Shown: one piece after another, positions 1 through 41,740 of the stretch
Layout of the letters: every line of letters begins with the position of its first letter
How positions within the stretch are numbered: the first letter of the stretch is position 1
Source: Candidatus Woesearchaeota archaeon B3_Woes
GTDB taxonomy: Archaea; Nanobdellota; Nanobdellia; Woesearchaeales; B3-WOES
Assembly (NCBI GenBank): GCA_005222965.1
Contig: NJBG01000001.1
Coordinates: forward strand, 435,061 to 499,060
DNA length: 64,000 bases
Direction of reading: 5' to 3'
The notes under the pieces: model-generated
What the model saw: the letters and a program-made list of their open reading frames with translations, nothing else
The model's database searches: none
What the model was told of the DNA's origin: nothing
Translations under genes and position numbers: made by a program

Positions 1-68
1 TTTTTAACAAGTTCTTCTATGAGAAAACCACCCATAAAACCTGTTGCACCAGTAACAAATATTTTCAT
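1..68 (-). CDS. NAD-dependent epimerase/dehydratase (SDR family), N-terminal fragment; the gene continues beyond the window edge
   Basis: The reverse complement of 1-68 translates to MKIFVTGATGFMGGFLIEELVK, which carries a Rossmann GxxGxxG motif. The start codon is the reverse complement of 66-68 and overlaps the stop of the downstream GT4 gene (ATGA). Confidence 0.5.
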   Translation of the reverse strand, partial: MKIFVTGATGFMGGFLIEELVK

Positions 69-1204: not shown

Positions 1205-1343
1205 TTATTGTTTCCTCACGAAGTTTATTATAGTTATAACGAACATATCCTTTTTAAATATTTGTAATTGGGTTTTAAAGGTCATGTTCTTTATTCTCAT
1301 TTAAAGGAAGGATTTATAAATTATAATAGATACCATAATTAAA

Positions 1344-2477: not shown

Positions 2478-2525
2478 AAATCACATTTTATTAATATTTA
2501 TAAATAAACTTATATATCAAATAAA

Positions 2526-3548: not shown

Positions 3549-3551
3549 AAA

Positions 3552-4556: not shown

Positions 4557-4560
4557 AGTA

Positions 4561-5745: not shown

Positions 5746-5749
5746 TGTT

Positions 5750-21948: not shown

Positions 21949-23451
21949 TTAAGTTAATGGTATTTCTCCCTTCTCAAAAACAGAACCAGTGTATAATCTG
22001 GCCTCTTCAGTATCCATAGTTGATTTTCCTTCTTCAGTTATATAACTCCACCCATCATGATACGCTCTTATTACTATTAAAACATTATCTGGTTTACCTG
22101 AATTTCTTAAATACTCTCTTGTTTTCTTAAAATAGAGGGCTCCTGCATAAATTTGCATATTTATATGTTCTCTTTCTTTGCTAGTAGATATTTCATTGTA
22201 AAAATAACTAGTATTATACTCATTAAAAGAAATTTTATATTCTTTTAAAGAAGGATATTTTTTTATTAAATCAGGATAGATATCTTTAACAGCTTCATGA
22301 AACATTTGCATTGCTCCATGTGCTCTTCCATCATATGCCTTATTCAAATATATTCCAAAATCAGATTCGGTTCCAAGAAGACCTAGTATAACTTTATAAT
22401 TAACATCTAGTTCTTTTGCTATATCATAAACATCTTTTAAATATATGTTTCCCTTTATTTCATTATCATTTGGTATTGGTGTTTCTCTTGAAAATCCAAA
22501 TTTAATTTTTTCAAATGCCTCTTCAGGAATATAATAAGTTGTAATGCTTATATCTTTCCAATCTTTTTCAATAGTATTGGGTAAATCTTCTTCATTTTTC
22601 AAGAAATAAGCAAAGTTAATATGTACTTTTCTTTTTAATAATCCTTGAAGAGTATAAATCCACACTTCTTTATTACTTGTAACATCAAATAAAGCAAAAT
22701 CATTTTCAAATTCTATAGACCATTTCCTAGATAACCCTTTAAAATATATTTGTGCTTCAATACATTCTCTAATGTTTTCTACATCTTTACACCAATTAAA
22801 TATAGATTTTGCTTCATTAACAGATTCTTGGAAATCATCAAAATTCGCATCTATTGCAAAAGAAGGGACGAACAAATAACTTCCAATTTTATCATTATTT
22901 TGGTTTATTATATCTAAAGATATATCTTTTATTGGCTCTCCAATAATCTTGTCCTCTTTTATTGTTAAAAAATAATTATCATCTGAGAAAATATTCTCTT
23001 CTGGATAATTTGTAAGATAGTTATTTAACTCTTTTTCAAACAATAATTTAAAGTTTAAGACAAGTTCTGGGTAACACTTTTTATCTTTTGTCTCCCAAAT
23101 TGAATGTATTTTATATCTTCCGCAACCGGTTTCTTGAAAAAATCCTCCTCGCTGACCAAATAAATAAAGAGACTGATCAACAGAATTTTTAGCTGATTGA
23201 TCTATGTAAAACAAAATGTTTTCTGATTCCTGGGCAGTTTCTAAAAGTTTTAACTGAGTTAAACCAATATTTTTATTTTCTCCTTTGATTTCATTTAATT
23301 GTGAAAACAAGAATAGTAAAGCTAGAGGAACAACAACTAATGCTAACAAAACAGCAAAATCTAATCCTTTTTTATTTGTTTTAAGCTTGTTTAAAATATT
23401 AAAAATTCTATATTTCTCTGAATTTTTATTTTTTATAAATTGATAGTTCAA
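21949..23451 (-). CDS. Membrane-anchored protein with a C-terminal lytic transglycosylase (SLT/GH23 lysozyme-like) domain
   Basis: N-terminal TM. C-terminal region has the three SLT signature blocks in order: GTESDF (catalytic E-S), GAMQM (GLMQ motif) and RAYHDGWS (AYNAG motif). Confidence 0.5.
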   Translation of the reverse strand: MNYQFIKNKNSEKYRIFNILNKLKTNKKGLDFAVLLALVVVPLALLFLFSQLNEIKGENKNIGLTQLKLLETAQESENILFYIDQSAKNSVDQSLYLFGQRGGFFQETGCGRYKIHSIWETKDKKCYPELVLNFKLLFEKELNNYLTNYPEENIFSDDNYFLTIKEDKIIGEPIKDISLDIINQNNDKIGSYLFVPSFAIDANFDDFQESVNEAKSIFNWCKDVENIRECIEAQIYFKGLSRKWSIEFENDFALFDVTSNKEVWIYTLQGLLKRKVHINFAYFLKNEEDLPNTIEKDWKDISITTYYIPEEAFEKIKFGFSRETPIPNDNEIKGNIYLKDVYDIAKELDVNYKVILGLLGTESDFGIYLNKAYDGRAHGAMQMFHEAVKDIYPDLIKKYPSLKEYKISFNEYNTSYFYNEISTSKEREHINMQIYAGALYFKKTREYLRNSGKPDNVLIVIRAYHDGWSYITEEGKSTMDTEEARLYTGSVFEKGEIPLT

Positions 23452-23878
23452 CTTCTATTGCCTCCTTGGTATACGATGGAATTAGAGTGGATGCTTCATA
23501 CTTCTTCTTTCCTTTCAATATTCCTTGAATAAAATTGTAATTTCCGGCTTTTTTGGTATTTTCAATAGAAAGATGCCAAATATAATTCTCTCCATAATAA
23601 GCCACTATAAAAATAGTTATATGTTTTTCCAAAGTGTAATATTCATCAGAAAGATAAGATTGTATAATCATATCTGATATTGCTCCGTCTGCTGTTTCTG
23701 TTCTTAATAAATTTAATAATAAAATATTATTATCTATGTTTTTTGGAATCTCTTTTACAGCAAAATTAATAGGTTTAAATACTTCACCATAAGCACTATA
23801 AAAAACAGTTATCTCTAATGTGATAATAGCTATAGACAATAACAATGTTAAAGCCTTTCCTATCCCTTTTTTATCCAT
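23426..23878 (-). CDS. Hypothetical protein with a class III (pilin-like) signal peptide
   Basis: MDKKG|IGKALTLLLSIAIITL N-terminus. Confidence 0.4.
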   Translation of the reverse strand: MDKKGIGKALTLLLSIAIITLEITVFYSAYGEVFKPINFAVKEIPKNIDNNILLLNLLRTETADGAISDMIIQSYLSDEYYTLEKHITIFIVAYYGENYIWHLSIENTKKAGNYNFIQGILKGKKKYEASTLIPSYTKEAIEVELSIYKK

Positions 23879-23880
23879 TT

Positions 23881-24390
23881 TTAATCAGGATACCTCTTTT
23901 TATGATATGCTAAATCAATTGTAAGTTTTGCTTGTTTAAATTCTTCTTCTGATTTTACTAAAACATAATATTCATTTACAACTCTATAAAATATTTTAGA
24001 AATATCATATCCTTCTTCATTATAATAAATGATTGCGTCTTGTTTTGTTTCATCAAAATAATCTAATTGTATTTTAATTCCAAATTCTTTTCCTATATAA
24101 TTTTCTCTGTCAAGAGCTGTTTGTAATGTTTGTTCATTAAATTTCAAAGGATCCATAATTCCAGTAAATAATCTTCCATGAATATCATCTCCATAAGATA
24201 AGGCATTAATAACTCTCTTTGAATAAGTATAATATTCAAGATTATGTGTAGAAGTTGTTTGGGATAATAGGGTATTTGCAGATGTGGCTATAATAATCAC
24301 TACAACAGCTGTCAAAGGTAAATAAAAAAACCAGTAAATCAAATCTTCTGATTTCCCTCTCTTATTTTTCAAAAGTTTATTCATTTTCAA
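23881..24390 (-). CDS. Hypothetical N-terminally anchored protein (island member)
   Basis: MKMNKLLKNKRGKSEDLIYWFFYLPLTAVVVIIIA. Overlaps neighbouring genes at both ends. Confidence 0.35.
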   Translation of the reverse strand: MKMNKLLKNKRGKSEDLIYWFFYLPLTAVVVIIIATSANTLLSQTTSTHNLEYYTYSKRVINALSYGDDIHGRLFTGIMDPLKFNEQTLQTALDRENYIGKEFGIKIQLDYFDETKQDAIIYYNEEGYDISKIFYRVVNEYYVLVKSEEEFKQAKLTIDLAYHKKRYPD

Positions 24391-25255
24391 AATATTCTAT
24401 TAAACCTTTATTTATTATATTTACAACGTTTTTTGGATAGTTTCTTGGTAAAATTATGGATAATGATGCTTCTTTTCCTTTAAACTGGAAATAAGATTTA
24501 TCTATAGGAATTGTATTCACAGATTTGATATTGGTTGCAAAAAGATTTGAAATAGAGCAAGACAATGTCTTACTGGATTTACTGAGAGTATGATAAAATA
24601 TTTTAAGTTCATCATCATTTTGTGAGGTTTTTAATTCAATTACAATATCAATATTATTTCTTATTTCATCAAAAGTATCAGCAGAAATATAAAAGGAATC
24701 ATGATTTGGATGCTGTGCTTCTAATGAATCTGTTATTTCCCTTAAAGATTCATCTGAAACCAAAAGGAAAGATGTAGATTCTAGACTTTTTGTTGGTTTC
24801 AAACTTGGACAAACAACAATATTTTCATTAAATTCTATATTATCTTTATAATCAACTTCGAATTTATTTCCTTGTTTCAAAAAAGCGATTGAAACAGGAA
24901 ATTCTCCTAATGTTTTTAATAATAAAGGAGAATTTTTATCATCTATAAAATAACTAGATAAAGGTAATTTGTCTTTTTCATAAACATTTACTACATTATC
25001 ATTAAATTGGAAGCTGAAATTTTTTGTGTCTTGTGCATATTTTAAAAAAACAGTTCCGGGCATGCTTTGTATAGTGTCAATAATCAAAGAAAGATCTGTT
25101 GATAAAAATTGTTTATCAAAATCTGTTTTGTCTTTCATTGTTGATATCATAGAAAAAAGCAGAAGACCCACAACCCCCAAAGCCAATACTGTATGAAAAA
25201 CAGGATCCATCATAATACTCACCAAATCCCCTTTTTTAGAACGATATAATTTCAT
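24377..25255 (-). CDS. Hypothetical N-terminally anchored protein (island member)
   Basis: MKLYRSKKGDLVSIMMDPVFHTVLALGVVGLLLF. 292 aa. Confidence 0.35.
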   Translation of the reverse strand: MKLYRSKKGDLVSIMMDPVFHTVLALGVVGLLLFSMISTMKDKTDFDKQFLSTDLSLIIDTIQSMPGTVFLKYAQDTKNFSFQFNDNVVNVYEKDKLPLSSYFIDDKNSPLLLKTLGEFPVSIAFLKQGNKFEVDYKDNIEFNENIVVCPSLKPTKSLESTSFLLVSDESLREITDSLEAQHPNHDSFYISADTFDEIRNNIDIVIELKTSQNDDELKIFYHTLSKSSKTLSCSISNLFATNIKSVNTIPIDKSYFQFKGKEASLSIILPRNYPKNVVNIINKGLIEYFENE

Positions 25256-25257
25256 TT

Positions 25258-25776
25258 TTATTTGTTATATTTAGGAGAGATAACTGCAATATTGTTATTT
25301 TTTTCTAAATTAACTACACTTACTTTTTCTTGATTCTCTATTTTTGGGTTTGTTGTTTGAAAACAAATGTTTCCCTCAACACATTTGCCTTCTTTTATTT
25401 TTCCACCATTTTTAAATTTTTCACACTTGTCTGGATTGGTTCCATAATTATATTCATTTTTTTCTCCATCTATTTTAAATAGGCATAAACAAGTTAAATC
25501 GCTGCAACTAATGTTGGATTGAAGAGATTCTTTTTCAAAAGCAACCAGATAATAAAACTGCCCTTTGATAGGCACACCTATAGATTCTTTATCGCTTAAA
25601 TCATTAATTTCAGCAATAATTCTTTCAAAATCAAAATCTCTCTGGTCTTTTGCTTCAGTAGTATAAGATCTGTAAAACATAGTAAGAATAACTATCATCG
25701 AAACGGCTAAAATTAAATGAGGTACAAGTTTAACAACCTCTTCTAATGTAATCTCTCCTCTTTTATCATTAAACAT
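25258..25776 (-). CDS. Hypothetical Cys-rich protein with a class III-like signal anchor
   Basis: MFNDKRG|EITLEEVVKLVPHLILAVSMIVIL. Mature part has 8 Cys. Confidence 0.35.
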   Translation of the reverse strand: MFNDKRGEITLEEVVKLVPHLILAVSMIVILTMFYRSYTTEAKDQRDFDFERIIAEINDLSDKESIGVPIKGQFYYLVAFEKESLQSNISCSDLTCLCLFKIDGEKNEYNYGTNPDKCEKFKNGGKIKEGKCVEGNICFQTTNPKIENQEKVSVVNLEKNNNIAVISPKYNK

Positions 25777-25815
25777 AAAAAGAAACGGAGTTTTGAGGTA
25801 TATATAGTTTTCTGT

Positions 25816-26112
25816 TTATTCTTTTTGTTCTTTACAACAAATTTTATCTTTATTAACACATTTTAAACTTGATTCTGTTGTCCAACTATCCCCCAACACA
25901 CTACAATCAGAACCAGAAATACATCTTGTATCGCTAAACAATGCGCCACATGTATCTCCTTTAACAGCTTTTTCAGATTCATCTGCGATATTAGTATATT
26001 TTTCCATAGTATTTCCTATTTGGGTTCTAAAAACAAATATAAGAATAACCAAAACAACTAAAGAAAGTATTGCCATAACTAATGTTTGCATTGCAATGCC
26101 TTTTTTATTCAT
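25816..26112 (-). CDS. Small 6-Cys pilin-like protein (class III signal peptide), paralog of the 32334-33121 trio
   Basis: Start re-assigned to the internal Met at 26112: MNKKG|IAMQTLVMAILSLVVLVIL. Mature domain Cys pattern C…C…C…C…CC ends KICCKEQKE. Confidence 0.5.
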   Translation of the reverse strand: MNKKGIAMQTLVMAILSLVVLVILIFVFRTQIGNTMEKYTNIADESEKAVKGDTCGALFSDTRCISGSDCSVLGDSWTTESSLKCVNKDKICCKEQKE

Positions 26113-26155: not shown

Positions 26156-27424
26156 ATGAACAATTTTAAATATATCATTAATATTCTTTCTTACATTATG
26201 GGATTAGGACAATTAACAGAAAAAGTTTTTCAAGAATCAAGAATCGGAAGAAATCTAATGATATTAGGATTGGGTGGATTAAGTTTAATTGTTTCTCAAG
26301 CTTTAGCACGCAATACAAAAAAACAAGAAACACAAGATAAAGAAGTAATTGAATGGGTCTTACCTCAAGAAACATATAAAGTTGTTTTTCCTTTTAAAGA
26401 ACCAGAAACAAAATTTGAAAAAAGGATTTACAATCAATTGGGTGATGATGTCAAATATATGATGTGGAAAAGAAAATCAACTGATTTTAAAATGGCTTTG
26501 GCTTTATCAAATGTTATTAATAATCCAGGAATTAGTGCTTTTCAGAATGTAATAGATAAATTGATTGAACAGAGAAATCATACGGAATATGTTCCTCTAG
26601 AAGATATGGAAAAATATAACATAACTAAATCTAATTACCAAGGCACAATAGATCCTACTAGAACATTACCCCAGCCAGTTTTTTATCAACAAACCTGGTC
26701 TGGAGATATAATTCTTTTAGAAAAGGGAGATTTATTGCTACCTGAAACAAGCATTAGTGTTCCTCCAGGGATGGTTTATGTAAAAGGGGGCATTTTTGAT
26801 ATGGGGGATGTGATGGAAGATAATGAAATTTATGACGAAATACCTCTTCATAAAGAAGAAGTGGGAGATTTTTATATTGACATATATGAAGTGACTCAAG
26901 CCGAATTTACAAGAGTGATGGGATATATACCAGGCATAGGAAATAGTGAAGAATTACCAGCGGAAGGAATTCATTGGCCAGATGCAGATGAGTATTGTAG
27001 AAGAGTAGGCAAAAGATTACCAACAGAAGCAGAATGGGAATATGCTGCAAGAGAAAGAGGGGAAAAAGTTCGTTTTGGTAATGGTAAAAATATTATTGGT
27101 ATGGAAGACGCAAATTTTTGTTATGTTGGCCAATTTAGTAGGTTTTATCCTTATTATATCCCTAGTCGACATAGTGACCTGCGTTTTGGAGTAGTACCAG
27201 TTGGAAGTTATCCCCCAAATGCACTTGGTCTTTATGATATGACAGGTAATGTAGAGGAATGGGTATCGGATTGGTTTTATAATAGGTTCAATAAAAAAGT
27301 TTATGTATTAAAAGGCGGTTCTTATACTGGAAATCCTGCTGAAGTACGTGCAACATCTCATATGAGGGATACCGTAGTGGGAGTTAATTCTGAAGCAGGG
27401 TGCCGTTGTGTAAAAGACAGATAA
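26156..27424 (+). CDS. Secreted FGE-sulfatase (SUMF1/formylglycine-generating enzyme) domain protein
   Basis: Sec-type signal (RNLMILGLGGLSLIVSQALA|RN). FGE-domain blocks LPTEAEWEYAAR, GLYDMTGNVEEWVSDW, LKGGSY and terminal GCRCV. The true start may be an internal Met (26198). Confidence 0.7.
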   Translation: MNNFKYIINILSYIMGLGQLTEKVFQESRIGRNLMILGLGGLSLIVSQALARNTKKQETQDKEVIEWVLPQETYKVVFPFKEPETKFEKRIYNQLGDDVKYMMWKRKSTDFKMALALSNVINNPGISAFQNVIDKLIEQRNHTEYVPLEDMEKYNITKSNYQGTIDPTRTLPQPVFYQQTWSGDIILLEKGDLLLPETSISVPPGMVYVKGGIFDMGDVMEDNEIYDEIPLHKEEVGDFYIDIYEVTQAEFTRVMGYIPGIGNSEELPAEGIHWPDADEYCRRVGKRLPTEAEWEYAARERGEKVRFGNGKNIIGMEDANFCYVGQFSRFYPYYIPSRHSDLRFGVVPVGSYPPNALGLYDMTGNVEEWVSDWFYNRFNKKVYVLKGGSYTGNPAEVRATSHMRDTVVGVNSEAGCRCVKDR

Positions 27425-27472: not shown

Positions 27473-28126
27473 ATGGTTAATAAAAAAAGAGGTATTGTAT
27501 TAATTCTTGTTATTTTCGTAATTATAATTGTTGCATTATTAATAACATTACCTAAAAAAATAGTATATAGTAAAGATCCTCAAGATTGGATTGAGGAAGA
27601 AGGTATAACAAATATAATTGATGTTAAACATGCTACAGAAGGGAATGGCTATTTTAATACAAACAATCAGCAATATAAATATTTACAAGTTAATACTGCT
27701 TTTGGTTATGATGGTTTTTACAAAGGAGCATTCTTCAAAAACAAATATATTGATTCTTCTAATCAATTACATATAGAGATAACGCCTAACTTAAATCCTA
27801 ACGATGGTATTTTACAAGGAATTATTGTTGAAAAATTTGAAAACGGAAAACCAATATCTTATATATTCCTTGATGAAGATTGGAGAAAACAATTTAATGA
27901 TAATATAAATATTGTTTGGGGCCAAACCTATCAAAACTTTAAGAAATTTGAGTTTAATCAAATATCAACAGGAGTTTATATGGATAAAGTAGAAGATGAT
28001 TCTGATAGATTTTTTGAAGACTTTAACATACATGTTGGTGGTGTTTTGGTTGGAGATTTGAAAGTTTTTGGAGAAAACATATCTCAAATTGAAGAAGAAA
28101 ACGTTACACTAATCGCTATACACTAA
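27473..28126 (+). CDS. Hypothetical protein with an N-terminal class III-like signal anchor
   Basis: MVNKKRG|IVLILVIFVIIIVALLITL. 217 aa. Confidence 0.35.
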   Translation: MVNKKRGIVLILVIFVIIIVALLITLPKKIVYSKDPQDWIEEEGITNIIDVKHATEGNGYFNTNNQQYKYLQVNTAFGYDGFYKGAFFKNKYIDSSNQLHIEITPNLNPNDGILQGIIVEKFENGKPISYIFLDEDWRKQFNDNINIVWGQTYQNFKKFEFNQISTGVYMDKVEDDSDRFFEDFNIHVGGVLVGDLKVFGENISQIEEENVTLIAIH

Positions 28127-28135
28127 TCCACTAAA

Positions 28136-31063
28136 TTAGATAATCCTTCTCACAAACTTTTCACCAGGCACATCACTACCAGGCCATTTCTCTAACATTC
28201 CTATCATCACATCTACAGCAGCAAAAGCAGAACCAGAAGCCCATCTAACAGGAACTGTGCCTAGAAATCCAGTAAGAGTAGAAAGATAAATATCTGTAGC
28301 AACAAAAGTTGCTGAAATTGTTGTTCTAATATAGCCTGCTACTGGGAAATCATCATAACAATAACCTTCTTTTTTATCAATTTCTAGTTCTATACAATCA
28401 ATACTATAATGTATTTGATGGGGATCTTTAAATCTCCCTGAACTATCACATTTCTTAACAGCATTACTCTCGTCTATTATATTTTGATATTCATTAATAT
28501 ACTCTTTATTCAATTTGATTTGTTTTGAAAATGATTGGAATGATTTGCCTTGATTAACAATAATATAATTAAAAAGACCAACATCTCCATTTTTTCCATC
28601 CCCTACTTTATAATCAACATAACTATCTAGATTATCAAATCTTTCTTTTTCGTCTTCTGGAAGTCTTTGCCATCTTCTCTCATATTCTTCAACACGTTCT
28701 TCATAATCTTTTAAAGTAATAGTTCCTTTTTCTACATTCATTAAACCGCCACCAAAGTCAAAAATAGAAGCTTCCTTATCATTAGTACAATCACACTTTC
28801 TTTTTACAACTCTAAAATCAGTTTTACAAGGGCTCACTAAATACATTACATTAGATGGCCTTTCTTGATTTCTAATAAAGTATTTGGTTGCTTCTTCATT
28901 TAAGTTATAAGTAATCTTATCAGCTAATAATTTAGGTTGAGTTAAAGCAATATCATTTACACCAACAGGAGTCAATTTCTCATTTTTTGAATCCATAGAA
29001 TCTATTAAAACCGATAATAATACTGCAGTTGGAAGTGGGTGATTCTTAACCCATCTAGGAACACCAACAGTAACTGATTTAGCCATTGTTAAAGGGATAT
29101 ATCCTGGTCCTGTTACTGCTGCCCACTTTAATGAAGGGAAAGCTAAAGGTATTTGTTTTTTTCCAAGATCTAGAGCAGTAGCTAAAACAGTTCCTTTTTT
29201 CTCATAACCGATAGTTCCTTTTAACAAAATATTTCCTACATTTTGAGCTCCTTTGAGAAGAGATTTTTCAACTAACCTTTCGTCTACTTTTTGTAATGCA
29301 TTTAATTTTAGAAAAGCTGTTTCGCCAGCTTCTTTAAATAATACATCATCCACTTCAGTTGTTCCTTTTTTAAGTAATCCATTAAAAAATTGCCTATATG
29401 TTTGTTTTTTTAATAATGTTTCTTTTGCTTCTTTTGTTAATTCATTTTCAAAAATTTCTTTTACTCCTTTTATAGAACTCTTAATAAATACTCCTTCTTT
29501 AAGAGAGTCAATCCCTCCTCCCTTTACAATTTTTTCTGCTAATTCCCTTCTATATTCTTCTAAAGGCTTTTTCGCATCTATAAGATGTTGGGGTCTTCTA
29601 ATATTATTATTATTTAAAATTATATATATTTCACCAATTAGATCTTTTTCTAAGTTTTTGAATCTTTCAAATACTACTGATCCAGATCTTACTCCAAATT
29701 TTTTCGCAACAGCAGTTCCTATTTCTTTTGATGTTTCTCGACCAACACCATAAATCAATATTGTTTCTTCTTCTAATGCTAAACTTTTCATAATATTTTT
29801 TGTTGAAGCAAATTTAACTCTTTCAAAAAGATGTTTAGATCCTGATTTAATAGCAGTTTCTGCTGCTTCCTTGGCTAATTTTTCAGCTGCTTCTTCGCCT
29901 GCTTCTCCAGCTAATTTTTTAGATGCTTTTTCAGCTGCTTCTTTTGCGAGTTTGCCTTTACCCCCAGCAACATTTAAAGGGCCAGCAAGAGTAATATAAG
30001 AAATAGTAAAGAGATTAATCATATCAGACCATTCTTTATGCCAATAAGCTTCTGCTTCCTTAGGAAATTCTTCATAATAAACAAGATATTTTGGGTCTCC
30101 TAATGCTTGTAAAAATACTTTGTTGAAAATGGAATCACTAACATCTTGTGGAAGCTCAAAAGACTCCACAAAACAAGAGAACTCATCAACAGGATTATTT
30201 TTACTACATTCTTTTATATGAATCTTGTTTTGGAATATTGGTGTTTTATCATAATAAACACATCCTTGTCTATAAAAAGGTATTTCGTCTAATTCAACCT
30301 CTCCGAGATAGCGCTTAGCTTCTTTCCACTCCTGTTTCAACTCTATATCGTTTTCTTTATTTATTCTATTATCAAAGTATTTTTTAAGAGTATCTTTAGT
30401 AATTGGTGGATTAAACTTAGGTTTAAGAGGTTCCCACTTATTCGGACCCTTTAATTCACTAGCATCAAAACGAGCACAAAGTACATAATGGTCATTTAAT
30501 ACTGTTTTTTTTGATTTTACTAAACAATCTTTAACAGCATATCCTAATATTTCTATTACATTCTCTCTTTCTGTTGGTTCTTCTTCTGATTTATCCTTAA
30601 AACTCAAAAACTCAGAAGAAATACCACTGCAACTTACACTAGACTTTCCATATTCAATTGATTTTCTATCTCTCCTAGTAACAAGTTTTGAGAATAATGC
30701 AACAACTTTATTTTGTTCATCAGAAGGAACAGTATAACCAGATGGACAAACATCCCTGTTTTCATAATCAAACATACCAACAGCAACACTATTAAGTGAA
30801 CATTCCATAGCTTTCATAGAATTACTTACAATTCTTTCTTCTTCATTATAATGTTCCTCAGGAACATATGGTTCAAATTCCTCTTGTTCTTTCCATGGAA
30901 ACATCGATTCAGATGATTCTTCATCAAAAAACTTTTTCTTTGCAAAACCTACTCCTGGACCAATTACACCAATCACAACCGCACCAATCACAACCAAACC
31001 AAGAATTACAGAGATTAATGCAGACCAACCAATCATTCCTCTTTTTTGATTAAAAAATTTCAT
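28136..31063 (-). CDS. Large (975 aa) N-terminally anchored protein of unknown function
   Basis: MKFFNQKRG|MIGWSALISVILGLVVIGAVVIGVIG. Internal Ala/Glu/Lys-rich helical repeats (KLAKEAAEKASKKLAGEAGEEAAEKLAKEAAETAIK). No recognisable catalytic motif. Confidence 0.45.
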   Translation of the reverse strand: MKFFNQKRGMIGWSALISVILGLVVIGAVVIGVIGPGVGFAKKKFFDEESSESMFPWKEQEEFEPYVPEEHYNEEERIVSNSMKAMECSLNSVAVGMFDYENRDVCPSGYTVPSDEQNKVVALFSKLVTRRDRKSIEYGKSSVSCSGISSEFLSFKDKSEEEPTERENVIEILGYAVKDCLVKSKKTVLNDHYVLCARFDASELKGPNKWEPLKPKFNPPITKDTLKKYFDNRINKENDIELKQEWKEAKRYLGEVELDEIPFYRQGCVYYDKTPIFQNKIHIKECSKNNPVDEFSCFVESFELPQDVSDSIFNKVFLQALGDPKYLVYYEEFPKEAEAYWHKEWSDMINLFTISYITLAGPLNVAGGKGKLAKEAAEKASKKLAGEAGEEAAEKLAKEAAETAIKSGSKHLFERVKFASTKNIMKSLALEEETILIYGVGRETSKEIGTAVAKKFGVRSGSVVFERFKNLEKDLIGEIYIILNNNNIRRPQHLIDAKKPLEEYRRELAEKIVKGGGIDSLKEGVFIKSSIKGVKEIFENELTKEAKETLLKKQTYRQFFNGLLKKGTTEVDDVLFKEAGETAFLKLNALQKVDERLVEKSLLKGAQNVGNILLKGTIGYEKKGTVLATALDLGKKQIPLAFPSLKWAAVTGPGYIPLTMAKSVTVGVPRWVKNHPLPTAVLLSVLIDSMDSKNEKLTPVGVNDIALTQPKLLADKITYNLNEEATKYFIRNQERPSNVMYLVSPCKTDFRVVKRKCDCTNDKEASIFDFGGGLMNVEKGTITLKDYEERVEEYERRWQRLPEDEKERFDNLDSYVDYKVGDGKNGDVGLFNYIIVNQGKSFQSFSKQIKLNKEYINEYQNIIDESNAVKKCDSSGRFKDPHQIHYSIDCIELEIDKKEGYCYDDFPVAGYIRTTISATFVATDIYLSTLTGFLGTVPVRWASGSAFAAVDVMIGMLEKWPGSDVPGEKFVRRII

Positions 31064-31223
31064 TTTAAAAAATATTTCTTAAAAATTGAACTTTATCTAA
31101 TAAAAAATCTTTTGATTTAAAAGAAATGTAAATAAGTGCGAGTATAACGAATAAACCTATTATTAATCCAACTATAACAGACCAACCTGGTAATTCTCCT
31201 TTCTTAAAAAGATCTTTTCTCAT
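31056..31223 (-). CDS. Unannotated small ORF (~55 aa) with a pilin-like N-terminus
   Basis: Minus-strand translation gives MRKDLFKKG|ELPGWSVIVGLIIGLFVILALIYISFKSKDF… Its stop abuts the start of the 975-aa gene. Not in the ORF track (short). Confidence 0.25.
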
Positions 31224-32173
31224 CCTATTATATAAGTGCATTTTTCACTTACCTCGCTATAAGGCATTAAACTTAATACATTTACTGGTTTATGCACTTT
31301 GTCTTTGTTTATAATCCCTGTCCATTTCAAAAATGTTTCTCCATAGTTTACTAGCTTTAGAACATTAATACGTGCGTATACAATTGCTAATGGTTCATCA
31401 ACCTCATACAAATATTCTGGTGCGAATATTCCCTTATTAACATCATCTTTAGTATATTCATAAAAACTTCTTTGTTGTGGATCAATTATAACAGGATGTT
31501 TTTGCATCCATTCTGGTAAAGATGTTATTTCTCTTCCACTAAATTTTTCTTTTACTTTATCTTCAAATTTTATACGTGAACATAATAAACAAAAAGCAGG
31601 AGGTCCACTTGCTTCATAATTCCAAAATTGAAGACGGCTCAATACTTCTTTAGGAAGTGAACACTCTTTATTCTCAGGACAACCACATTTAAAATCTCCT
31701 TCCTTATTAGGTTCACACTCAATTAAACCCCACCACTCTTGAAAAACAGGCATTTGCCCCTTCCAAGCCACATCCCAACAACCCTTAATTTCATTTGCAA
31801 TAACCCTATTCATTTCAAATTCTAATAATTCTTCTTCACTATTTGAATGAAAACTAACATATTTTGAATCTTTATATTTTTCATTAAATTCATCAATCTC
31901 TTTTTGATTAGATTTCTTTTTATCTTCTAATTGTTCCAGAGTTATGTTTTTTCTTGTCATTTGACAATCTGGGGGTATTGTTTCTACACCTAAAACAGGA
32001 GACTTAGTAAGTGAACTCAATAAAAGGTTCCATTGACAATTTTTCTTTAGTGCTTCTTCTTCTAATACATTTCCCCATTCAATATAAACAAGAAGCAGCA
32101 CACCTAATGAAACCACAAGAACAATTAATGTTACGAGTATTGGTGAAAGATCTCCTTGTGCTTTTTTATTCAT
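31220..32173 (-). CDS. Cys-rich pilin-like protein (class III signal peptide)
   Basis: MNKKA|QGDLSPILVTLIVLVVSLGVLLLV. 317 aa, 12 Cys. Confidence 0.45.
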   Translation of the reverse strand: MNKKAQGDLSPILVTLIVLVVSLGVLLLVYIEWGNVLEEEALKKNCQWNLLLSSLTKSPVLGVETIPPDCQMTRKNITLEQLEDKKKSNQKEIDEFNEKYKDSKYVSFHSNSEEELLEFEMNRVIANEIKGCWDVAWKGQMPVFQEWWGLIECEPNKEGDFKCGCPENKECSLPKEVLSRLQFWNYEASGPPAFCLLCSRIKFEDKVKEKFSGREITSLPEWMQKHPVIIDPQQRSFYEYTKDDVNKGIFAPEYLYEVDEPLAIVYARINVLKLVNYGETFLKWTGIINKDKVHKPVNVLSLMPYSEVSEKCTYIIG

Positions 32174-32289
32174 GCAAACCCCTTCTCAACAACTTTTTTT
32201 AATATGTTCCAAAGCATGAGAAATACAACTAAAGCTATTATTAAAAAAATAAGGAAAACTAGTGCTTTTTTTGTACCTCCTTTTTTCAT
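32170..32289 (-). CDS. Unannotated tiny ORF (39 aa) with a pilin-like N-terminus
   Basis: MKKGG|TKKALVFLIFLIIALVVFLMLWNILKKVVEKGFA. Its stop overlaps the next start (ATGA). Confidence 0.25.
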   Translation of the reverse strand: MKKGGTKKALVFLIFLIIALVVFLMLWNILKKVVEKGFA

Positions 32290-32333
32290 AATAAATATAA
32301 TTTAAAGAACAAGATATATAAACTTTATGGTGG

Positions 32334-32570
32334 CTAGCTCCCCGCAGCCTTACCTATAGGAATACAGCAATCATCACATTCTTGTGTTTTTATAGTTGCT
32401 CCATAAGAACAAGGAGTTTTACACTCTCCTCCTTTTTCTGTACAACTGTCTAAACTAGTCTTAACGTCTCCAATTTTACCTGAAAACACAAAAAGAATAA
32501 CAGCCAGAACAATTAAAGCTAAAATTGATATAACAATCGTTTGTAAACTTAGTCCTTGTGCTTTTTTCAT
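32334..32570 (-). CDS. Small 6-Cys pilin-like protein (tandem paralog 1 of 3)
   Basis: MKKA|QGLSLQTIVISILALIVLAVILFVF. Mature about 50 aa with C…C…C…C…CC. Confidence 0.5.
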   Translation of the reverse strand: MKKAQGLSLQTIVISILALIVLAVILFVFSGKIGDVKTSLDSCTEKGGECKTPCSYGATIKTQECDDCCIPIGKAAGS

Positions 32571-32824
32571 TCTTGGTTCATACAGCAGTAGTTTCCACCA
32601 TCTGCTTTTCCATCTCCATCATCATCACAATTTATTATATATATGGGTGTTTCGTCTTTATTACAATCAGATGCACCACTAACACATTTACCATCACAAG
32701 AATCTATTCCTTTCTTAAAACTCCCCATTTTGCCGGATAAAAGAACAATTAGAATAACCAAAACAATAAGGACCAAGGCCGCTATTACTATTGTGTTCAA
32801 ACTTAGTCCTTGTGCTTTTTTCAT
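32567..32824 (-). CDS. Small 6-Cys pilin-like protein (tandem paralog 2 of 3)
   Basis: MKKA|QGLSLNTIVIAALVLIVLVIL. Has a DDDGDGKADGG loop and ends YCCMNQE. Confidence 0.5.
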   Translation of the reverse strand: MKKAQGLSLNTIVIAALVLIVLVILIVLLSGKMGSFKKGIDSCDGKCVSGASDCNKDETPIYIINCDDDGDGKADGGNYCCMNQE

Positions 32825-32839
32825 CTTAAAAAGAAAAAA

Positions 32840-33121
32840 TTATACAGAGATGCAACAAACCCCATCTACTGCTTGGCCTTCATTAACAGTTGAATCGCCA
32901 TCTAAATCGCAATCATAAGAAACTTCTCTTGTGTAATCTCCTTCACAACTGGTTCTTGAACAGAATCCACCCATTGTTTCACAATCTCCAGAACCCTCTC
33001 TGAATCCGCCCAACCTTCCCATAAATATAACTGCTAATATAACCATAACTAATAATGCTAATGCTGCTATTATTATAACATTAAGACTTAGTCCTTGTGC
33101 TTTTTTTCTCATAAGTTTCAC
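32840..33121 (-). CDS. Small 6-Cys pilin-like protein (tandem paralog 3 of 3)
   Basis: MKLMRKKA|QGLSLNVIIIAALALLVMVIL. Has a DCDLDGDSTVNEG loop and ends VCCISV. Confidence 0.5.
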   Translation of the reverse strand: MKLMRKKAQGLSLNVIIIAALALLVMVILAVIFMGRLGGFREGSGDCETMGGFCSRTSCEGDYTREVSYDCDLDGDSTVNEGQAVDGVCCISV

Positions 33122-33187
33122 CTCTTTGGATTAAACTGATACTATTAATTGTATTGATTTATGTTATATTTAAATCTTACTATTAAA

Positions 33188-33673
33188 TTATCCATAAATA
33201 TCCAATGTAATAGTCATAACACCAGCGTCTGTTTGTAAAAATTGGGTTTTTCTTTCTCTTTCTCTTACTGTCCTTTCTTTTCCTGCTTCAACAACAACCT
33301 TTCCAGGAACACTAGCTTTAAGATAATAATCTTTTACTAAACTTATGTTAAGAATAGTTTCTGTTAAATTATTTATTGTTTGAGTTGCATACCCTTGTGA
33401 ATCAGAAGGTGAACCAGGACAAGTTATGCTTGGATTATCCTTACTAGCATCACTTAATAATTCACCTATAGATATATCATTACATTCTGTATTAGTATTC
33501 AACAAAGTATTTAGCATATTTGCTGCTAATTGGGTTTCTGAATACTCTTTTCTATAAGTTTGTGGTGCTTTAAACAAGGTAAATCTTAATGCAAACATTA
33601 AACCAACCATCAATAATACAACTACAATTGCCAACCCCATTATTTCCATCTGCGCTTTTTTGTTTTTTCTCAT
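33188..33673 (-). CDS. Pilin-like protein (class III signal peptide)
   Basis: Start re-assigned to the internal Met at 33673: MRKNKKA|QMEIMGLAIVVVLLMVGLMF. Confidence 0.45.
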   Translation of the reverse strand: MRKNKKAQMEIMGLAIVVVLLMVGLMFALRFTLFKAPQTYRKEYSETQLAANMLNTLLNTNTECNDISIGELLSDASKDNPSITCPGSPSDSQGYATQTINNLTETILNISLVKDYYLKASVPGKVVVEAGKERTVRERERKTQFLQTDAGVMTITLDIYG

Positions 33674-33776
33674 TTTATCCGAATATTCTGTGAGGATATT
33701 TGAAAACACTTGAAAATCATTTGGATTTTCAGTGCACCAAAAATCTTTGATTTTTGTGTGTCTTTGATTTTCATTT

Positions 33777-34247
33777 TTAGCTTACTGTATAATATTTAAT
33801 CTCTAACATTCCAAATGAATTAGTTCTTGTTGTAGCATTATAAAGGAGGATAGGAATTGAGGTTTTATAAACAGATCCGCTCCTTGTTCTATTATAGATA
33901 TTCCATTCCTTGTTTGAAGGATATATCTCCTTAACAGTTATATCGCTATAATAAAAAAAAGGGTAATAGACATTATTTTTGTCTGGTAAAGTCATAAAAG
34001 CACTTAATTTATACATATCAAAACAGTTATCTTTTATTATGTTTTTAGATGAACACTGTAGTTCTGGCAAAAAAGAGATTGCTTGACTAACCTTTATTGA
34101 TTCAAGTTCTTGTATTTTTGCTATTTTCTGTCCCTGACTAAATCCACTTGTTCTTATATAAAAAGTAAAACCAATTACTATAATTACAAAAAAGATAAGC
34201 ATTATTGCAATTGTTTCCATCATTTGGATTTGTGATTTCTTTTTCAT
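33777..34247 (-). CDS. Pilin-like protein (class III signal peptide)
   Basis: Start re-assigned to Met at 34247: MKKKS|QIQMMETIAIMLIFFVIIVIGF. This removes the overlap with the upstream gene. Confidence 0.45.
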   Translation of the reverse strand: MKKKSQIQMMETIAIMLIFFVIIVIGFTFYIRTSGFSQGQKIAKIQELESIKVSQAISFLPELQCSSKNIIKDNCFDMYKLSAFMTLPDKNNVYYPFFYYSDITVKEIYPSNKEWNIYNRTRSGSVYKTSIPILLYNATTRTNSFGMLEIKYYTVS

Positions 34248-34249
34248 TT

Positions 34250-35296
34250 TTAATAAACAGCAGGGCACGAATTTGCCAAAGTAATACCATTATTTGTGCT
34301 TAAACTATCTGCCCATATTCTAACATTAGGGTAACTTTGTTCAGATGCAGCAGTTGCTATGTCTCCTATGTCATTTAAAGCATTGTCAAGACTATTATAA
34401 CAAACTCCACTAACATAACCATCTCTTAATGTTGTAGTTCTATCTTCATAAACTTTTGTAATGTTTTGTAATCTGTAAAATGCATTGTTCATCCCGCAAT
34501 CATAGATTTCTTTATTTTCAGAAAAAACAGCTGCTAAAAGAGATGCCTTACCAACATAATATGTAGATTCTGACACCCAACTTGCCTCATTATAATTAAA
34601 AAATTCTAAGCCTCCATTACAATCCATTCTTTCGTCTGCAGGATCACTCACACAACCGGGCGTTATATAAACTGCACTTATGTCTTCCTCTTTTGTGTCT
34701 CCAAAAGTGGAACCAGGGTTAAAAGTTACAGGATCACTAAAATATATTACTCTTACTTTATAATTATTTTTATCCCCGCTAACTGATCCTTTTTCTTTAC
34801 TGATAAAAAGTTTAGATTGGCCATCTTTAACAATATATTTTGGAGGCAATAAATCAAAAAGAGCATTTGCTAAATCAGTCACATCATCATCAATTATATA
34901 TCTGACTTCTGGGCTTGTTACATATAAAAAATTAGTAACTCTATAAGGTACACTCCAATCATGCGCATAAACAGAAACAGTATTTCTATCAGATTCTATT
35001 GAATCTGGAGCAAAAGCATATGGAAATCTTGCTGCAAATTGATTTCCTACTCTAAACCCTTCACAACCAAACTGAATCTTTTTGTTTGGAATCTCAACCA
35101 CAGAAGAGGTTCCAGTACTTACATATGAACTACTGAATATGGATTGTAAATCTGTTTGAATTGTGCTGGATATGCTGTCTTCAGAAAACTCTTTTTGTTT
35201 TTGGACAATTGAAATAAAAAACATCAAGATTATTCCGCCAATTATTAAAATCATTATCCAATTAAACTGAAATGAAATTTGAGATTTCTTAAACAT
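34250..35296 (-). CDS. Pilin-like protein (class III signal peptide), 348 aa
   Basis: MFKKS|QISFQFNWIMILIIGGIILMFF. Confidence 0.45.
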   Translation of the reverse strand: MFKKSQISFQFNWIMILIIGGIILMFFISIVQKQKEFSEDSISSTIQTDLQSIFSSSYVSTGTSSVVEIPNKKIQFGCEGFRVGNQFAARFPYAFAPDSIESDRNTVSVYAHDWSVPYRVTNFLYVTSPEVRYIIDDDVTDLANALFDLLPPKYIVKDGQSKLFISKEKGSVSGDKNNYKVRVIYFSDPVTFNPGSTFGDTKEEDISAVYITPGCVSDPADERMDCNGGLEFFNYNEASWVSESTYYVGKASLLAAVFSENKEIYDCGMNNAFYRLQNITKVYEDRTTTLRDGYVSGVCYNSLDNALNDIGDIATAASEQSYPNVRIWADSLSTNNGITLANSCPAVY

Positions 35297-35305
35297 CTTT
35301 TTATT

Positions 35306-35806
35306 TTACGACCATTCAGAAACCCAAACATGATTTCCCATGCTCTCTAATTTTAATGTCACTTTTCCATTTACTACTTCAACACATTCTTCCTGATCTG
35401 CTCCATCTTCAACCTTAATATCTCCAACATAGAAACTTACATCCCCTGGTGGAGCTAAAAACATATTTTTATCCTCTGCTCCGTTATTTATATGCCCATT
35501 TATCAATGGATATTGTGTTGAGATAGCAGCAGATGGAAAAGAAGGATATGATTCAACAAAACAAATATGATCATAATTTCCAGGAACCGTCAAAACCTTT
35601 TTTTTAATGGTTCCTTTTGAATCTGCCTCAATCTTTTCAACTTCGTTTTTTATATCACTTTCTATCTGTAAATAAGATATTTCCTCGCTTCTATCATTAA
35701 AATAGTTTATTGCTTTATATCCATACAACAAAGTCATAGAAAACACAACCATTGCAAGAACATACATAAATACCTGACCAGCCATCTGTGATTTTTTGTT
35801 TTTCAT
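35306..35806 (-). CDS. Pilin-like protein (class III signal peptide)
   Basis: MKNKKS|QMAGQVFMYVLAMVVFSM. Its start overlaps the stop of the giant gene (ATGA). Confidence 0.45.
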   Translation of the reverse strand: MKNKKSQMAGQVFMYVLAMVVFSMTLLYGYKAINYFNDRSEEISYLQIESDIKNEVEKIEADSKGTIKKKVLTVPGNYDHICFVESYPSFPSAAISTQYPLINGHINNGAEDKNMFLAPPGDVSFYVGDIKVEDGADQEECVEVVNGKVTLKLESMGNHVWVSEWS

Positions 35807-38800
35807 TTTTTGCCTTTTGGTTTTTTCTTAGTGCCTTCTTTAATCTCTTTTAATGTTTCAAAAACATCTCCACTTGATTTTTTACCTTTGGTTATTCCTT
35901 TTAATTGTGATAAAGCGTCTCCTTTTGTTTTTTTCTGAACTTTTGAAAGAGATACCCACTCTTTTGTTGGTTTAGAAGGTTTAACAATTCTTTTTGTCTC
36001 TCTTCCCCTTCTTTGTAATCCTCTTCGTCTTTCTTGTGGTTTAGATGTTCCAGTTTCAAAACTTGAAAAGACCCCTCTTCTCTTTTCTTCTCTTTTCTTC
36101 TTGCTTTTTGCAATTAAATTTTTCAATTGTTTATCTATTTTGATTGGTTTGATAATAGAAGGGTGTGGTTTTCTAACTGAAGTAATTGTGTGTGTCTGAG
36201 TGGGGGTTTTAGGAGGTTTTTTGCCTTGTTTTCTCATATAATCTACATACATTGGATATCCAAAATAAACTCCTACTGAAATCAAGATAATCAAAAATAC
36301 TATCCAGAAAAAAGTCCACCACACTGAACCAGGTTTTGAGTTAGCATCTAATGGGTCTGTCCCTTTTTCTATTTCTTTTTTATCAACAAAACCATCTCCA
36401 TCTGTATCTGAATTAAGTGGGCTTGTTCCTGCTCTGTCTTCTTCAAAATTACTTAGACCATCATTATCAGCATCTTCATCACCATCTAAAATACCATCTC
36501 CATCGCTATCAGGAGAATAAGGGTCTAAATTATACATTTGTTCAAATTCATTACTTAAACCATCTCCATCAATATCATCATCACAAGCATCACCTAATCC
36601 ATCACCGTCCATATCTAATTGATCTAAATTTGATTCATATGGGCAATTATCATCTTGGTTTAATATTCCATCTCCATCGCTATCTGATTTACAAATTCCC
36701 CCAATACATCTCAAATCACTCAAACAATCATCATCTATATCACAAAAATCCCCTTCTTCACATCCTTCACAAGAACCCCCGCAATCCACTCCTGTTTCTC
36801 CGCTATCTAAAATATTATTATGACATTTATCTGGTGGAGAACATTTACCTGTCACAACATTACAATAACCAGACTTACAATTGCTGTCTTTATTCTCACA
36901 TTCTTCTCCATTCTCGCACTTTGGACAATTGCCTCCACAATCTATGTCTGATTCAATACTATTTTCTACCTTATCATAACAGGTTGGGTCTGCACAATAT
37001 CCTTCAATACAAAAACCAGATACACAATCCATGTTTTCATTACATTGAGGTTGTTCAATCTGACACATACTAAGATCATATTCACAATCACTATCACAGT
37101 CTAACGAACCATTAATAAAATCACTATCATAATCATTACAATCATTAAAATCACCCAAATCCCAACCATCACATGCTTCTCCTGCATTAATTTCATCATT
37201 ACCACATTCTCCTTCAGTTCCCCCTTTACACTCGTTTTCATCAAAAGTGCAATCATTATTACATGCTAGCTCTCCTTCATAAAATCCCCTGCTAGAACAG
37301 GTAGCATTTCTCAAATCACCAATATCACATTCTTCAGTTGAATCTGCTGCACCATCTCCACATTCGCTTCCTTCTCCGCCAGTACATGAACTTGTATCAA
37401 ATATACAATCATTACAGGTTAATTCTCCTCCTGTAAACTCATCAAAACTAGAACACTCTTTATCTCCTATTTCGTCGCCTTCGCATTGTTCTCCTGTATT
37501 AATATCTATTACACCATCACCACAGTAACTTCCTTCTCCGCCTGTACATGAACTTGTATCAAATATACAATCATTATTACAACCTAAAATTCCTCCTGTG
37601 AAATCTGCTATATCAAAGCAAGTGGTGTCTCCTTTGTTCTCACCATCGCATTGTTCTCCTGTATTAATTTCTCCATCTCCACAATATCCAGAAGTTCCTC
37701 CTTCACATAATATTGTTTTTAATTCGCAGTTATCGCATATTAAAGTTCCTCCTGTGAAATCATCAAAATCTCTACAGTCGGTTTCTCCTTTGTTCTCGCC
37801 GTCGCATTGTTCTCCTGCGCTTGCATCTACTATCCCATCACCACAGTAACTTCCTTCTCCACCTGTACACAAACTTATATCAAACACACAATCGCTAGCG
37901 CAAGTTAAGATTCCACCTGTAAAATAAAAATCAGAGCATTCATTAAGGTCTTCTGCCCATTCTGCGTCTCCGTCGCATTGTTCTCCTGCATCAATAATAT
38001 TATTATTACAGTATCCTGAATCAGGACCACAAGGAGCACAACTTCCTCCGCAATCTACTCCTGTTTCGTCTTCATTTTTTATACTATCATCACAATGAGC
38101 AGGTTTAGCACTAATATCAATAGTTATACCATCACTTGACATAACATCTCCTTCTAAACCATATGCGTTTTCTGGCTTTACATCAAACTGATATTTTTGT
38201 TTATCTGCAAGATTTATATCATCTACAACTATCCACTCATCTTCTGTTGTTTCATCAAGCCAATCAAATACAAAACTATCTGTTGCTCCAAATTCTTTTA
38301 ATCTATAATAATACTGCGCAATTCTTGTATCAAGATCTTCTCCCAACCATTTAACTCTTAATCTAGTATGTTTCCATGTAATTTCTGGGTTTGGTTCATT
38401 GCTTGAATCATCAACATAATTCATTTTAGGAGGAGTTACGTCAACACTAAAACCTATTTCATAAGGGATAGATGGTAACCAACTAATTTGCCTGCTATCA
38501 TAACACTTTACATAATATCTATAATCTCCATTGCCCGGAACACTAATTGTTGCTTTGTGGTCTAAAGTGGTCTGTTTTGTAAAAGGCAGCCAAGTAGAAA
38601 TTGGAGAAGATTGATCTGTAGTATATTTACAATTAGTATCTAGGTTAACTTTCGCTCTTAAATCTATTTCATTAGTTGTAAAGTAAGGATTAGTCATACT
38701 AACGACAGATAAAGGAGCACTATCACTCACCTTAAAAGATATTGGCATTGTGCTTATGAGTTCTGCCATATTCATACATTCTACCATATAAGTTCTCATA

Positions 38801-41739: not shown

Positions 41740-41740
41740 T

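Follow-up and report, generated by a model that had tools for sequence, protein, structure and literature searches.

A Woesearchaeota gene predicted to join a surface carrier module to a GH23/SLT domain, at a locus where related genes carry other murein hydrolases

The last gene of a six-gene operon

We analyzed a 64-kb stretch of DNA from Candidatus Woesearchaeota archaeon B3_Woes (contig NJBG01000001.1; referred to throughout, at its full 64,000 nucleotides, as the window), and within it a gene at positions 21949-23451 of the minus strand whose 500-amino-acid product appears to combine an N-terminal carrier module with a C-terminal domain of the lytic transglycosylase (SLT/GH23) type. The gene product is 100% identical to CEE44_02450, an NCBI hypothetical protein of the same organism encoded on a 1.0-Mb contig, and four close homologs align with it over its full length at 70-76% identity (BLASTP). 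The genome name B3_Woes had no match in our literature search. That the host is an archaeon, as the initial annotation had supposed, is borne out by the markers TBP, MCM, PolD DP1 and DP2, Cdc6/Orc1, RPA, RadA and RNase P p30, all of which lie in the window; its G+C content ranges from 0.24 to 0.37.

The gene starts with a TTG codon that has an AGGAGG sequence 9 nucleotides upstream and that overlaps the 3' end of the upstream open reading frame (ORF), 23426-23878. Because of this overlap, the two genes are probably co-translated as parts of an operon. The operon comprises six co-oriented genes, in the order p120, p172, p292, p169, p150 and, last, the gene studied here; genes for RPA, YdjM and RadA follow. 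The first of the six, p120, encodes a small Cys-rich pilin-like protein, and its probable start is the Met of MNKKG at 26112. The features of the terminal gene and its operon are as follows.

21949-23451, minus strand: whole gene (500 amino acids), encoding leader, hydrophobic helix, N-module, linker and predicted SLT domain (from the ORF list, NCBI identity and close homologs)
23461-23466, minus strand: Shine-Dalgarno sequence AGGAGG (from reading the sequence)
23365-23451, minus strand: Lys-rich leader, residues 1-29, ending in K-K-G (from the sequence and the family-wide leader pattern)
23296-23364, minus strand: hydrophobic helix, residues 30-52 (LDFAVLLALVVVPLALLFLFSQL), a predicted class III-type (pilin-like) signal or uncleaved signal anchor (from hydropathy and AlphaFold)
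22582-23286, minus strand: N-module (carrier), residues 56-290, in which an alpha/beta domain comes after a long helix; it contains Cys110, Cys126, Cys221 and Cys230
22465-22581, minus strand: linker and N-terminal extension of the enzyme domain, residues 291-329, with a low predicted local distance difference test (pLDDT) score where the N-module model ends; conserved in the close homologs only
21952-22464, minus strand: predicted GH23/SLT catalytic domain (lytic transglycosylase family 1-like), residues 330-500
23426-26112, minus strand: the five upstream operon genes p150, p169, p292, p172 and p120, in all of which a K-[GS] N-terminus precedes a hydrophobic segment

The C-terminal domain and its GH23/SLT signature

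The initial annotation had read a lytic transglycosylase signature into this protein from three ordered SLT blocks. All three are present in the order seen in SLT: GTESDF at residues 360-365, containing Glu362-Ser363, HGAMQMF at 378-384 and RAYHDGWS at 462-469. We also found a fourth SLT block, Y487-x3-V491. A regular expression for the ordered motifs matched only this protein among the 283 stop-to-stop ORFs of the window, and it found nothing in 300 shuffles of all 283. The motifs are listed here with their conservation in an alignment of 15 C-domains, in which identity falls to as low as 29%.

22363-22368, minus strand: motif I, predicted catalytic Glu362-Ser363; invariant in the 15 homologs and aligned with the catalytic Glu of MltC (4c5f)
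22306-22323, minus strand: motif II, A-H-G-A-M-Q (the GLMQ block), residues 377-382; A377, H378, G379 and Q382 invariant, aligned with A-L-G-L-M-Q of MltC
22051-22065, minus strand: motif III, A-Y-H-D-G (a variant of AYNxG), residues 463-467; Y464, H465, D466 and G467 invariant, aligned with A-Y-N-G-G of MltC
21979-21993, minus strand: motif IV, Y487-T-G-S-V491 (Y-x-x-x-V); Y487 invariant, aligned with Y-L-I-K-V of the MltC homolog 9vi7

Over the whole domain, the invariant residues are E362, S363, A377-H-G379, Q382, F384, Q433, Y440, Y464-H-D-G467 and Y487. The Glu of the ESDF block, which had been taken to be catalytic, is therefore among them, and it aligns with the residue that is mutated in 4cfo, the structure of an E-to-Q mutant of MltC whose Gln stands in the Glu362 column of the profile alignment. 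Motif III retains its Tyr and Gly, with an invariant His at the Asn position followed by the invariant Asp466. Motif IV, which is reportedly defined in the classification of Blackburn and Clarke as Y-x-x-x-[VI] near the C-terminus, has the consensus EAxxYxxKV among the homologs.

Profile searches gave a match to known enzymes once enough relatives were included. A search of the PDB with the single sequence (phmmer) returned no match, and a profile built from five full-length sequences found MltC only, at a non-significant E of 0.34. The profile of 15 C-domains matched MltC twice (Escherichia coli, E 1.3e-6; a second MltC, 8e-6) and, more weakly, Neisseria LtgA (0.018); MltC is 24% identical to the C-domain. 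Against Pfam SLT (PF01464; gathering cut-off 21.3 bits), which had been named as a check on the assignment, homologs score above the cut-off and the protein itself does not match. The cut-off is exceeded by four of the ten C-module relatives scanned (P0018, 34.9 bits; P0013, 25.2; P0028, 24.1; P0019, 22.4) and by an ortholog from a Nanoarchaeota metagenome-assembled genome (MAG; locus L002 below) at 34.4 bits, and the homologs that pass match the protein's own profile at E 1e-28 to 1e-41. The AlphaFold model of residues 317-500 has a pLDDT of 94.6 and a predicted template modeling score (pTM) of 0.91, and the predicted domain shows the alpha-helical, goose-type-lysozyme-like fold of GH23. Murein lytic transglycosylases are the top matches of the C-domain in both sequence and fold, and EtgA, FlgJ and the phage lysins phi6 P5 and phiKZ gp144 are also among its fold matches.

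Two results weigh against this assignment. Pfam finds no SLT match in the protein even at E<=1, and the NCBIfam and PHROG scans likewise returned none. The deviation of motif III, AYHDG, is the second, as its invariant His and Asp could mean a hydrolase (a muramidase or chitinase) rather than a lytic transglycosylase. Relative to canonical family-1 enzymes, motifs II and III are also set further apart, by ~25 inserted residues. Two residues past the motif II Gln lies the invariant Phe384, at the position where g-type lysozymes carry Asp97 (numbering of goose egg-white lysozyme, GEWL); D374 is only partly conserved. Taken together, the profile matches, the homologs that pass Pfam SLT and the predicted fold indicate that the C-terminal ~170 residues are a GH23/SLT domain whose active-site signature is intact, as had been proposed. 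Neither outcome that the initial annotation had named as refuting it, placement in another fold or a catalytic Glu that varies among homologs, was obtained.

The carrier family and the terminal genes of related loci

When 1.84 billion representatives were searched exhaustively with HMMER, 898 relatives of the protein emerged at E<=1e-3, and its two-module make-up became apparent. The C-terminal module is shared by 12 of the top 150 relatives; residues ~20-290 are matched by most of the 898, always at the relative's own N-terminus. Among the top relatives are 74 stand-alone proteins of <=330 amino acids (typically ~260) and 68 that are longer. A word-indexed search found only the four close homologs beyond the protein itself, with no homolog for the C-domain alignment and few for the N-module alignment. 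The N-module has no sequence relative in Pfam, NCBIfam or the PDB, and the taxonomy of most family members rests on the archaeal neighbors (RPA and RadA) in the loci that we examined.

The N-terminus of the family is strongly patterned. A short, Lys-rich leader ending in [KR]-[GAS] directly precedes a hydrophobic helix of ~20 residues in 134 of 146 complete N-module proteins; the leader has a median length of 8 amino acids, and Lys occupies position -2 in 128. In the window, the signal reads ...TNKKG followed by LDFAVLLALVVVPLALLFLF, and the helix has a hydropathy of 2.88 over 19 residues. This K-[GAS] leader and helix would be compatible with an uncleaved signal anchor as well as with a processed signal. 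Because Cys110, Cys126, Cys221 and Cys230 are invariant or nearly so across the carrier family, the module fits an extracytoplasmic, disulfide-bonded domain, in which the Cys pairs would form the disulfides. The AlphaFold model of the carrier (pLDDT 88) consists of a helix at residues 27-55, a long helix at 62-100 and then a beta-sheet with helices, and its best structural match, a weak one, is GspK. In three relatives (P0057, P0099 and P0111), the carrier profile is split into two stretches with a hydrolase domain between them. A candidate kinship between the N-module and a 454-amino-acid protein of the neighboring surface-protein island was rejected, as hhalign aligned the signal motif only.

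Pfam domains of the 68 multidomain carrier proteins were SLT (13), Peptidase_M23 (8), fn3 (7), Amidase_2 (3), NlpC/P60, Peptidase_M15, Phage_lysozyme2 and SLT_2 (2 each), and Peptidase_M74, VanY and CHAP (1 each). We compared eleven syntenic or similarly organized loci. The gene order of the window is found again in L001, L002, L005 and L008, with partial conservation in L006, L007, L009 and L010 (phmmer against the ORFs of each locus), while L011 and L012 have the same layout by their gene lists. RPA, YdjM and RadA follow the operon wherever the contig reaches that far. The terminal genes of these loci differ in the domain that they carry.

SLT: the window (500 amino acids), L005 (487), L007 (499), L006 (1040; the contig ends at the gene) and L012 (934)
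VanY-like domain plus SLT: L001 and L002 (657 amino acids)
M23: L009 (864 amino acids; NCBI GCA_016187565.1)
NlpC/P60: L010 (343 amino acids)
CHAP: L011 (813 amino acids)
No hydrolase: L008 (264 amino acids)

Given this shared genomic context, the hydrolase-bearing carriers represent one locus rather than scattered paralogs, and the exchange of effectors on the carrier is restricted to murein-active domains. L008, with no hydrolase, is a close relative by its neighbors (p975 match, E 2.6e-194). The linkage to a pilin-like island that the initial annotation had described is real, and it is conserved across the eleven loci.

Several variants of this arrangement were observed. The 657-amino-acid orthologs in L001 (8597-10570) and L002 (4840-6813) have an extra middle domain between carrier and SLT, with a VanY/M15-like 'SAYRTYEQQ' segment (Pfam VanY, E 0.03) whose metal-ligand motif looks incomplete. 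In L003, an island like that of the window, made up of proteins with K-K-[GAS] signals, ends in a shorter protein that has only a signal and an SLT domain. This locus (CAZQHZ010000002.1) is labelled 'uncultured Methanosarcinales archaeon'; it has a very AT-rich coding style, the same DPANN-type island and archaeal ribosomal protein genes, and the bin label may be wrong. In L004 (2953-8349), a 1798-amino-acid surface protein (Nanoarchaeota MAG014) ends in the same SLT subfamily and is evidently of the 'large SLT protein' type of the literature. L004 lies in the same Nanoarchaeota MAG as L002, such that one genome holds two deliveries of the same enzyme type.

The fixed position bears on whether the gene is a lysin of a virus or mobile element that lies in the window by chance. 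The phage lysins phi6 P5 and phiKZ gp144 do share its fold, and the L002 ortholog weakly matches a PHROG 'transglycosylase' (E 8.7e-4). However, the gene keeps its chromosomal place beside RPA, YdjM and RadA in many genomes, its G+C content of 0.26-0.31 fits the surroundings, and the protein has neither a PHROG match nor a relative in IMG/VR by the scan used, all of which makes such an origin exceedingly improbable.

The exchange of terminal domains likewise bears on a housekeeping role, in which the enzyme would open the producer's own wall for assembly of the island's filament or complex, as do VirB1, FlgJ and EtgA. Dedicated bacterial SLTs sit in pilus- or surface-type gene clusters, and the conserved place of this gene, last in a cluster that encodes pilin-like and surface proteins, would suit such a role, as would the presence of EtgA and FlgJ among the fold matches. 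Yet the organism is archaeal, and its 64-kb window showed no gene for murein synthesis; L008 has the operon and the carrier without a hydrolase, so the enzyme is dispensable for the structure; and swapping between glycosidases and endopeptidases or amidases resembles an arms race more than a fixed assembly function. We regard an own-wall role as quite improbable.

A second wall-hydrolase homolog lies within the operon. The product of p292 (24377-25255, minus strand; 292 amino acids) is a homolog of Amidase_3 (N-acetylmuramoyl-L-alanine amidase) by the Amidase_3 matches of its orthologs. Those in L007 and L009 retain the DPGHG- and SLHAG-type metal-ligand motifs; in the lineage of the window, L005 and L008, the first metal-ligand motif is deleted and the third replaced. 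We therefore rejected p292 as an active amidase in this lineage, where it is probably a pseudo-enzyme judging by its sequence. As pseudo-enzymes occur in the operon, the SLT domain might similarly have no catalytic activity and act as a glycan-binding adhesin that does no more than hold the archaeon to a partner. Its four catalytic and structural motifs, including Glu362-Ser363, are nevertheless invariant down to 29% identity, and its model is confidently folded, leaving this explanation with very little likelihood.

The nature of the exchanged domains also informs the choice of substrate. With the same fold, the enzyme might act on chitin or chito-oligosaccharides, on another N-acetylglucosamine (GlcNAc) glycan, or on the pseudomurein of a methanogen partner; AYHDG is off consensus, and the invariant Asp466 could serve as a second carboxylate. 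Against a substrate other than murein stand the best sequence and fold matches, which are murein lytic transglycosylases, the presence of Phe384, not Asp, two residues after the motif II Gln, and the fusion of the carrier elsewhere to M23, NlpC/P60, CHAP, Amidase_2, VanY/M15 and M74. Domains of the M23, NlpC/P60, CHAP, amidase and VanY types act on N-acetylmuramic acid (MurNAc)-L-Ala or on D-amino-acid stems, structures not present in pseudomurein or chitin. In addition, the beta-1,3 linkage of pseudomurein between N-acetylglucosamine (NAG) and N-acetyltalosaminuronic acid (NAT) resists lysozyme-type enzymes. We consider a non-murein substrate unlikely. The initial annotation had proposed a partner's wall of bacterial peptidoglycan or possibly pseudomurein; because all effectors are murein-specific, the former is the likely substrate and the latter an unlikely one.

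The surface-protein island, the proposed role and known systems

The operon adjoins a larger island of surface-protein genes, with the following features.

27473-46458, not assigned to one strand: remainder of the surface-protein island, with further proteins whose N-termini combine K-K-[GAS] and a hydrophobic stretch, in several cases with Gln at +1 (from an N-terminus table); it holds two pilin-like proteins of 85-93 amino acids and giant adhesin-like proteins
35803-41739, minus strand: giant Cys-rich surface protein of 1978 amino acids, with TSP3 repeats and bacterial Ig-like (Big) domains (Pfam)
43102-46458, minus strand: giant Cys-rich surface protein of 1118 amino acids, with a MopE-like metal-binding motif
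25816-26112, 32567-32824 and 32840-33121, minus strand: members of a family of 80- to 106-amino-acid proteins

Synteny with L001 and L008 extends to the island proteins p217, p975 and p317, and a similar giant protein precedes the island of L003. The small proteins, with orthologs in L001, L003, L006, L008 and L010, share a common build of K-K-[GA], Q or I, a hydrophobic helix of ~22 residues and a small six-Cys domain ending in CC, and on these features they are candidate major pilins. They have no significant Pfam, NCBIfam or PDB match. Weak signals were seen to Flp1_like (sub-threshold, at E 2e-4 for p120 and 2.3e-3 for its L002 ortholog), to BasB and to a non-significant beta-defensin/crotamine-like Cys pattern. 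An opposite-strand gene in the middle of the island (26156-27424, plus strand) encodes an FGE-sulfatase (formylglycine-generating-enzyme-like) domain protein, and the same domain occurs near the L006 operon.

Three observations speak against a pilin-like nature of the terminal protein and its operon. The terminal protein has no pilin signature in Pfam or NCBIfam. No assembly ATPase, platform protein or prepilin peptidase was found by Pfam in the 64-kb window or in the ±10 kb loci. In p292, p172 and p169, ~3-13 residues separate K-[GS] from the start of the hydrophobic segment, a spacing that is atypical for class III signals as that motif is generally described. Archaeal pilin genes are often unlinked from their assembly machinery, which limits the weight of the second observation. 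The pilin interpretation is plausible but unproven, drawing on the signal motifs and the weak GspK-like fold match. The parallel with SLTs of bacterial pilus and secretion loci that had been drawn at first accordingly holds for the position of the gene; it does not extend to the assembly genes, and the producer presumably has no sacculus.

Elsewhere in the window, a cluster at 65-6913 encodes three radical S-adenosylmethionine (SAM) enzymes (two with SPASM), two GT1-family (group 1) glycosyltransferases and an NAD-dependent epimerase; it presumably modifies a surface glycan or peptide and has no bearing on the SLT domain. Replication and transcription genes (TBP, MCM, PolD DP2 and DP1, and Cdc6/Orc1) occupy 50131-61949. 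This cluster is closed by an AT-rich intergenic region of 530 bp (61418-61949) that contains several imperfect repeats, both direct and inverted. The region is a possible replication origin in which no clear set of origin-recognition-box (ORB)-type repeats was found.

We think it probable that the protein is a surface-exposed, N-terminally anchored carrier with a GH23 enzyme, most likely serving to breach or digest the walls of bacterial partners or prey. The Lys-rich leader ending in K-K-G and the hydrophobic helix of ~23 residues would carry the protein across the membrane, after which the helix could be kept as an anchor or processed like an archaeal class III (prepilin-type) signal. The carrier (residues ~56-290) would then dock the enzyme at the cell surface and present an exchangeable 'effector' domain. 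It could do so as a stalk anchored in the membrane or, once its signal had been processed in the prepilin manner, as a minor subunit in a type IV-like filament that it builds together with the products of the upstream genes. By analogy to MltC, Slt70 and MltE, Glu362 would act alone as acid/base in cleaving the MurNAc-beta-1,4-GlcNAc bond of bacterial peptidoglycan, and the ends left would presumably be 1,6-anhydroMurNAc. A wall of bacterial partners or prey is the most likely target because the producer is archaeal and orthologous loci swap murein-specific hydrolases. A bolder and more doubtful proposal is that the six-gene operon forms the type IV-filament-like tip or stalk of Woesearchaeales, with a GspK-like terminal subunit that carries interchangeable murein hydrolases: a polymorphic 'wall-drilling' appendage, shaped by an arms race at a fixed locus, that breaches bacterial hosts or prey.

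Woesearchaeota are one of the most widespread DPANN groups, and the polymorphic carrier locus has a direct bearing on the question of their hosts, lifestyle and interaction partners. At this conserved chromosomal locus, the last gene swaps among murein hydrolases of different chemistry (a glycosidase, D,D- and gamma-D-Glu endopeptidases, and amidases), and this provides strong genomic evidence for engagement of bacterial walls by Woesearchaeota. The locus offers testable enzymes, a carrier that can be localized and effector types that can be matched with the wall chemotypes of co-occurring bacteria; on the applied side, it offers new scaffolds for antibacterial lysins.

The presence of an SLT domain in an archaeon, which the initial annotation had called striking, has precedent: earlier reports describe SLT/GH23 proteins of Woesearchaeota and Pacearchaeota and propose that they act on bacterial walls (PMC8204110, citing Rinke 2013 and Castelle 2015; PMC9723730; PMC10936187). 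More recently, peptidoglycan hydrolase homologs were found to be prominent in Nanoarchaeota, and haloarchaeal M23 enzymes were shown experimentally to kill bacteria (PMC12352652, 2025). That survey demanded a recognized wall-binding domain, and the signals it reported were Sec or Tat only. Pfam annotation misses the enzyme described here, and published screens that demand known wall-binding domains or Sec/Tat signals would probably have missed the class. Several hundred related metagenome proteins are likely under-annotated for these same reasons.

Comparison with known systems places the enzyme and its carrier in different company. With the family-1 lytic transglycosylases MltC, Slt70, MltE, Pseudomonas aeruginosa Slt and LtgA, the enzyme domain shares the motifs E-S, G-x-M-Q, A-Y-x-x-G and Y-x3-V, and the catalytic Glu aligns. 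Unlike them, the protein comes from an archaeon with no known sacculus, is Pfam-silent, has AYHDG and the ~25-residue insertion, and begins with an unrelated N-terminal carrier in place of a lipobox, superhelical U-domain or DUF3393. The large SLT proteins of fam00969 (PMC8204110) and GH23 (PMC9723730) belong to the same clade and enzyme family and have the same proposed anti-bacterial role; whereas fam00969 proteins reach ~3000 amino acids, the present protein has 500, was unannotated and has a distinct carrier at a fixed locus.

The archaeal weaponized hydrolases of PMC12352652 and bacterial polymorphic effector loci have in common with this system murein hydrolase domains, patchy presence among relatives and domain shuffling. 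In contrast to the PMC12352652 enzymes, a new N-terminal module that bears a prepilin-like signal forms the constant part here, and the locus is chromosomal and syntenic, not plasmid-biased. Modular type IV pilins (Streptococcus sanguinis PilB and PilC; GspK) likewise have a signal and hydrophobic helix, a structural module and a grafted functional module, and the present protein likewise ends an operon of small, similarly signalled proteins; the inserted alpha-domain of GspK recalls the three carrier members with a hydrolase inside the carrier. It differs from modular pilins in having neither a pilin sequence signature nor assembly genes nearby, and in that its cargo consists of wall hydrolases. 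The closest existing concept is the bacterial 'modular pilin', a carrier plus an effector; the global survey of such proteins gives mainly adhesion modules as effectors and makes no mention of peptidoglycan hydrolases (PMC8179133). In the literature searched, we found no description of the carrier module, its prepilin-like signal or the syntenic effector-swapping locus. Thus, an SLT domain in Woesearchaeota is not new, but a carrier architecture with exchangeable cargo at a fixed locus appears to be.

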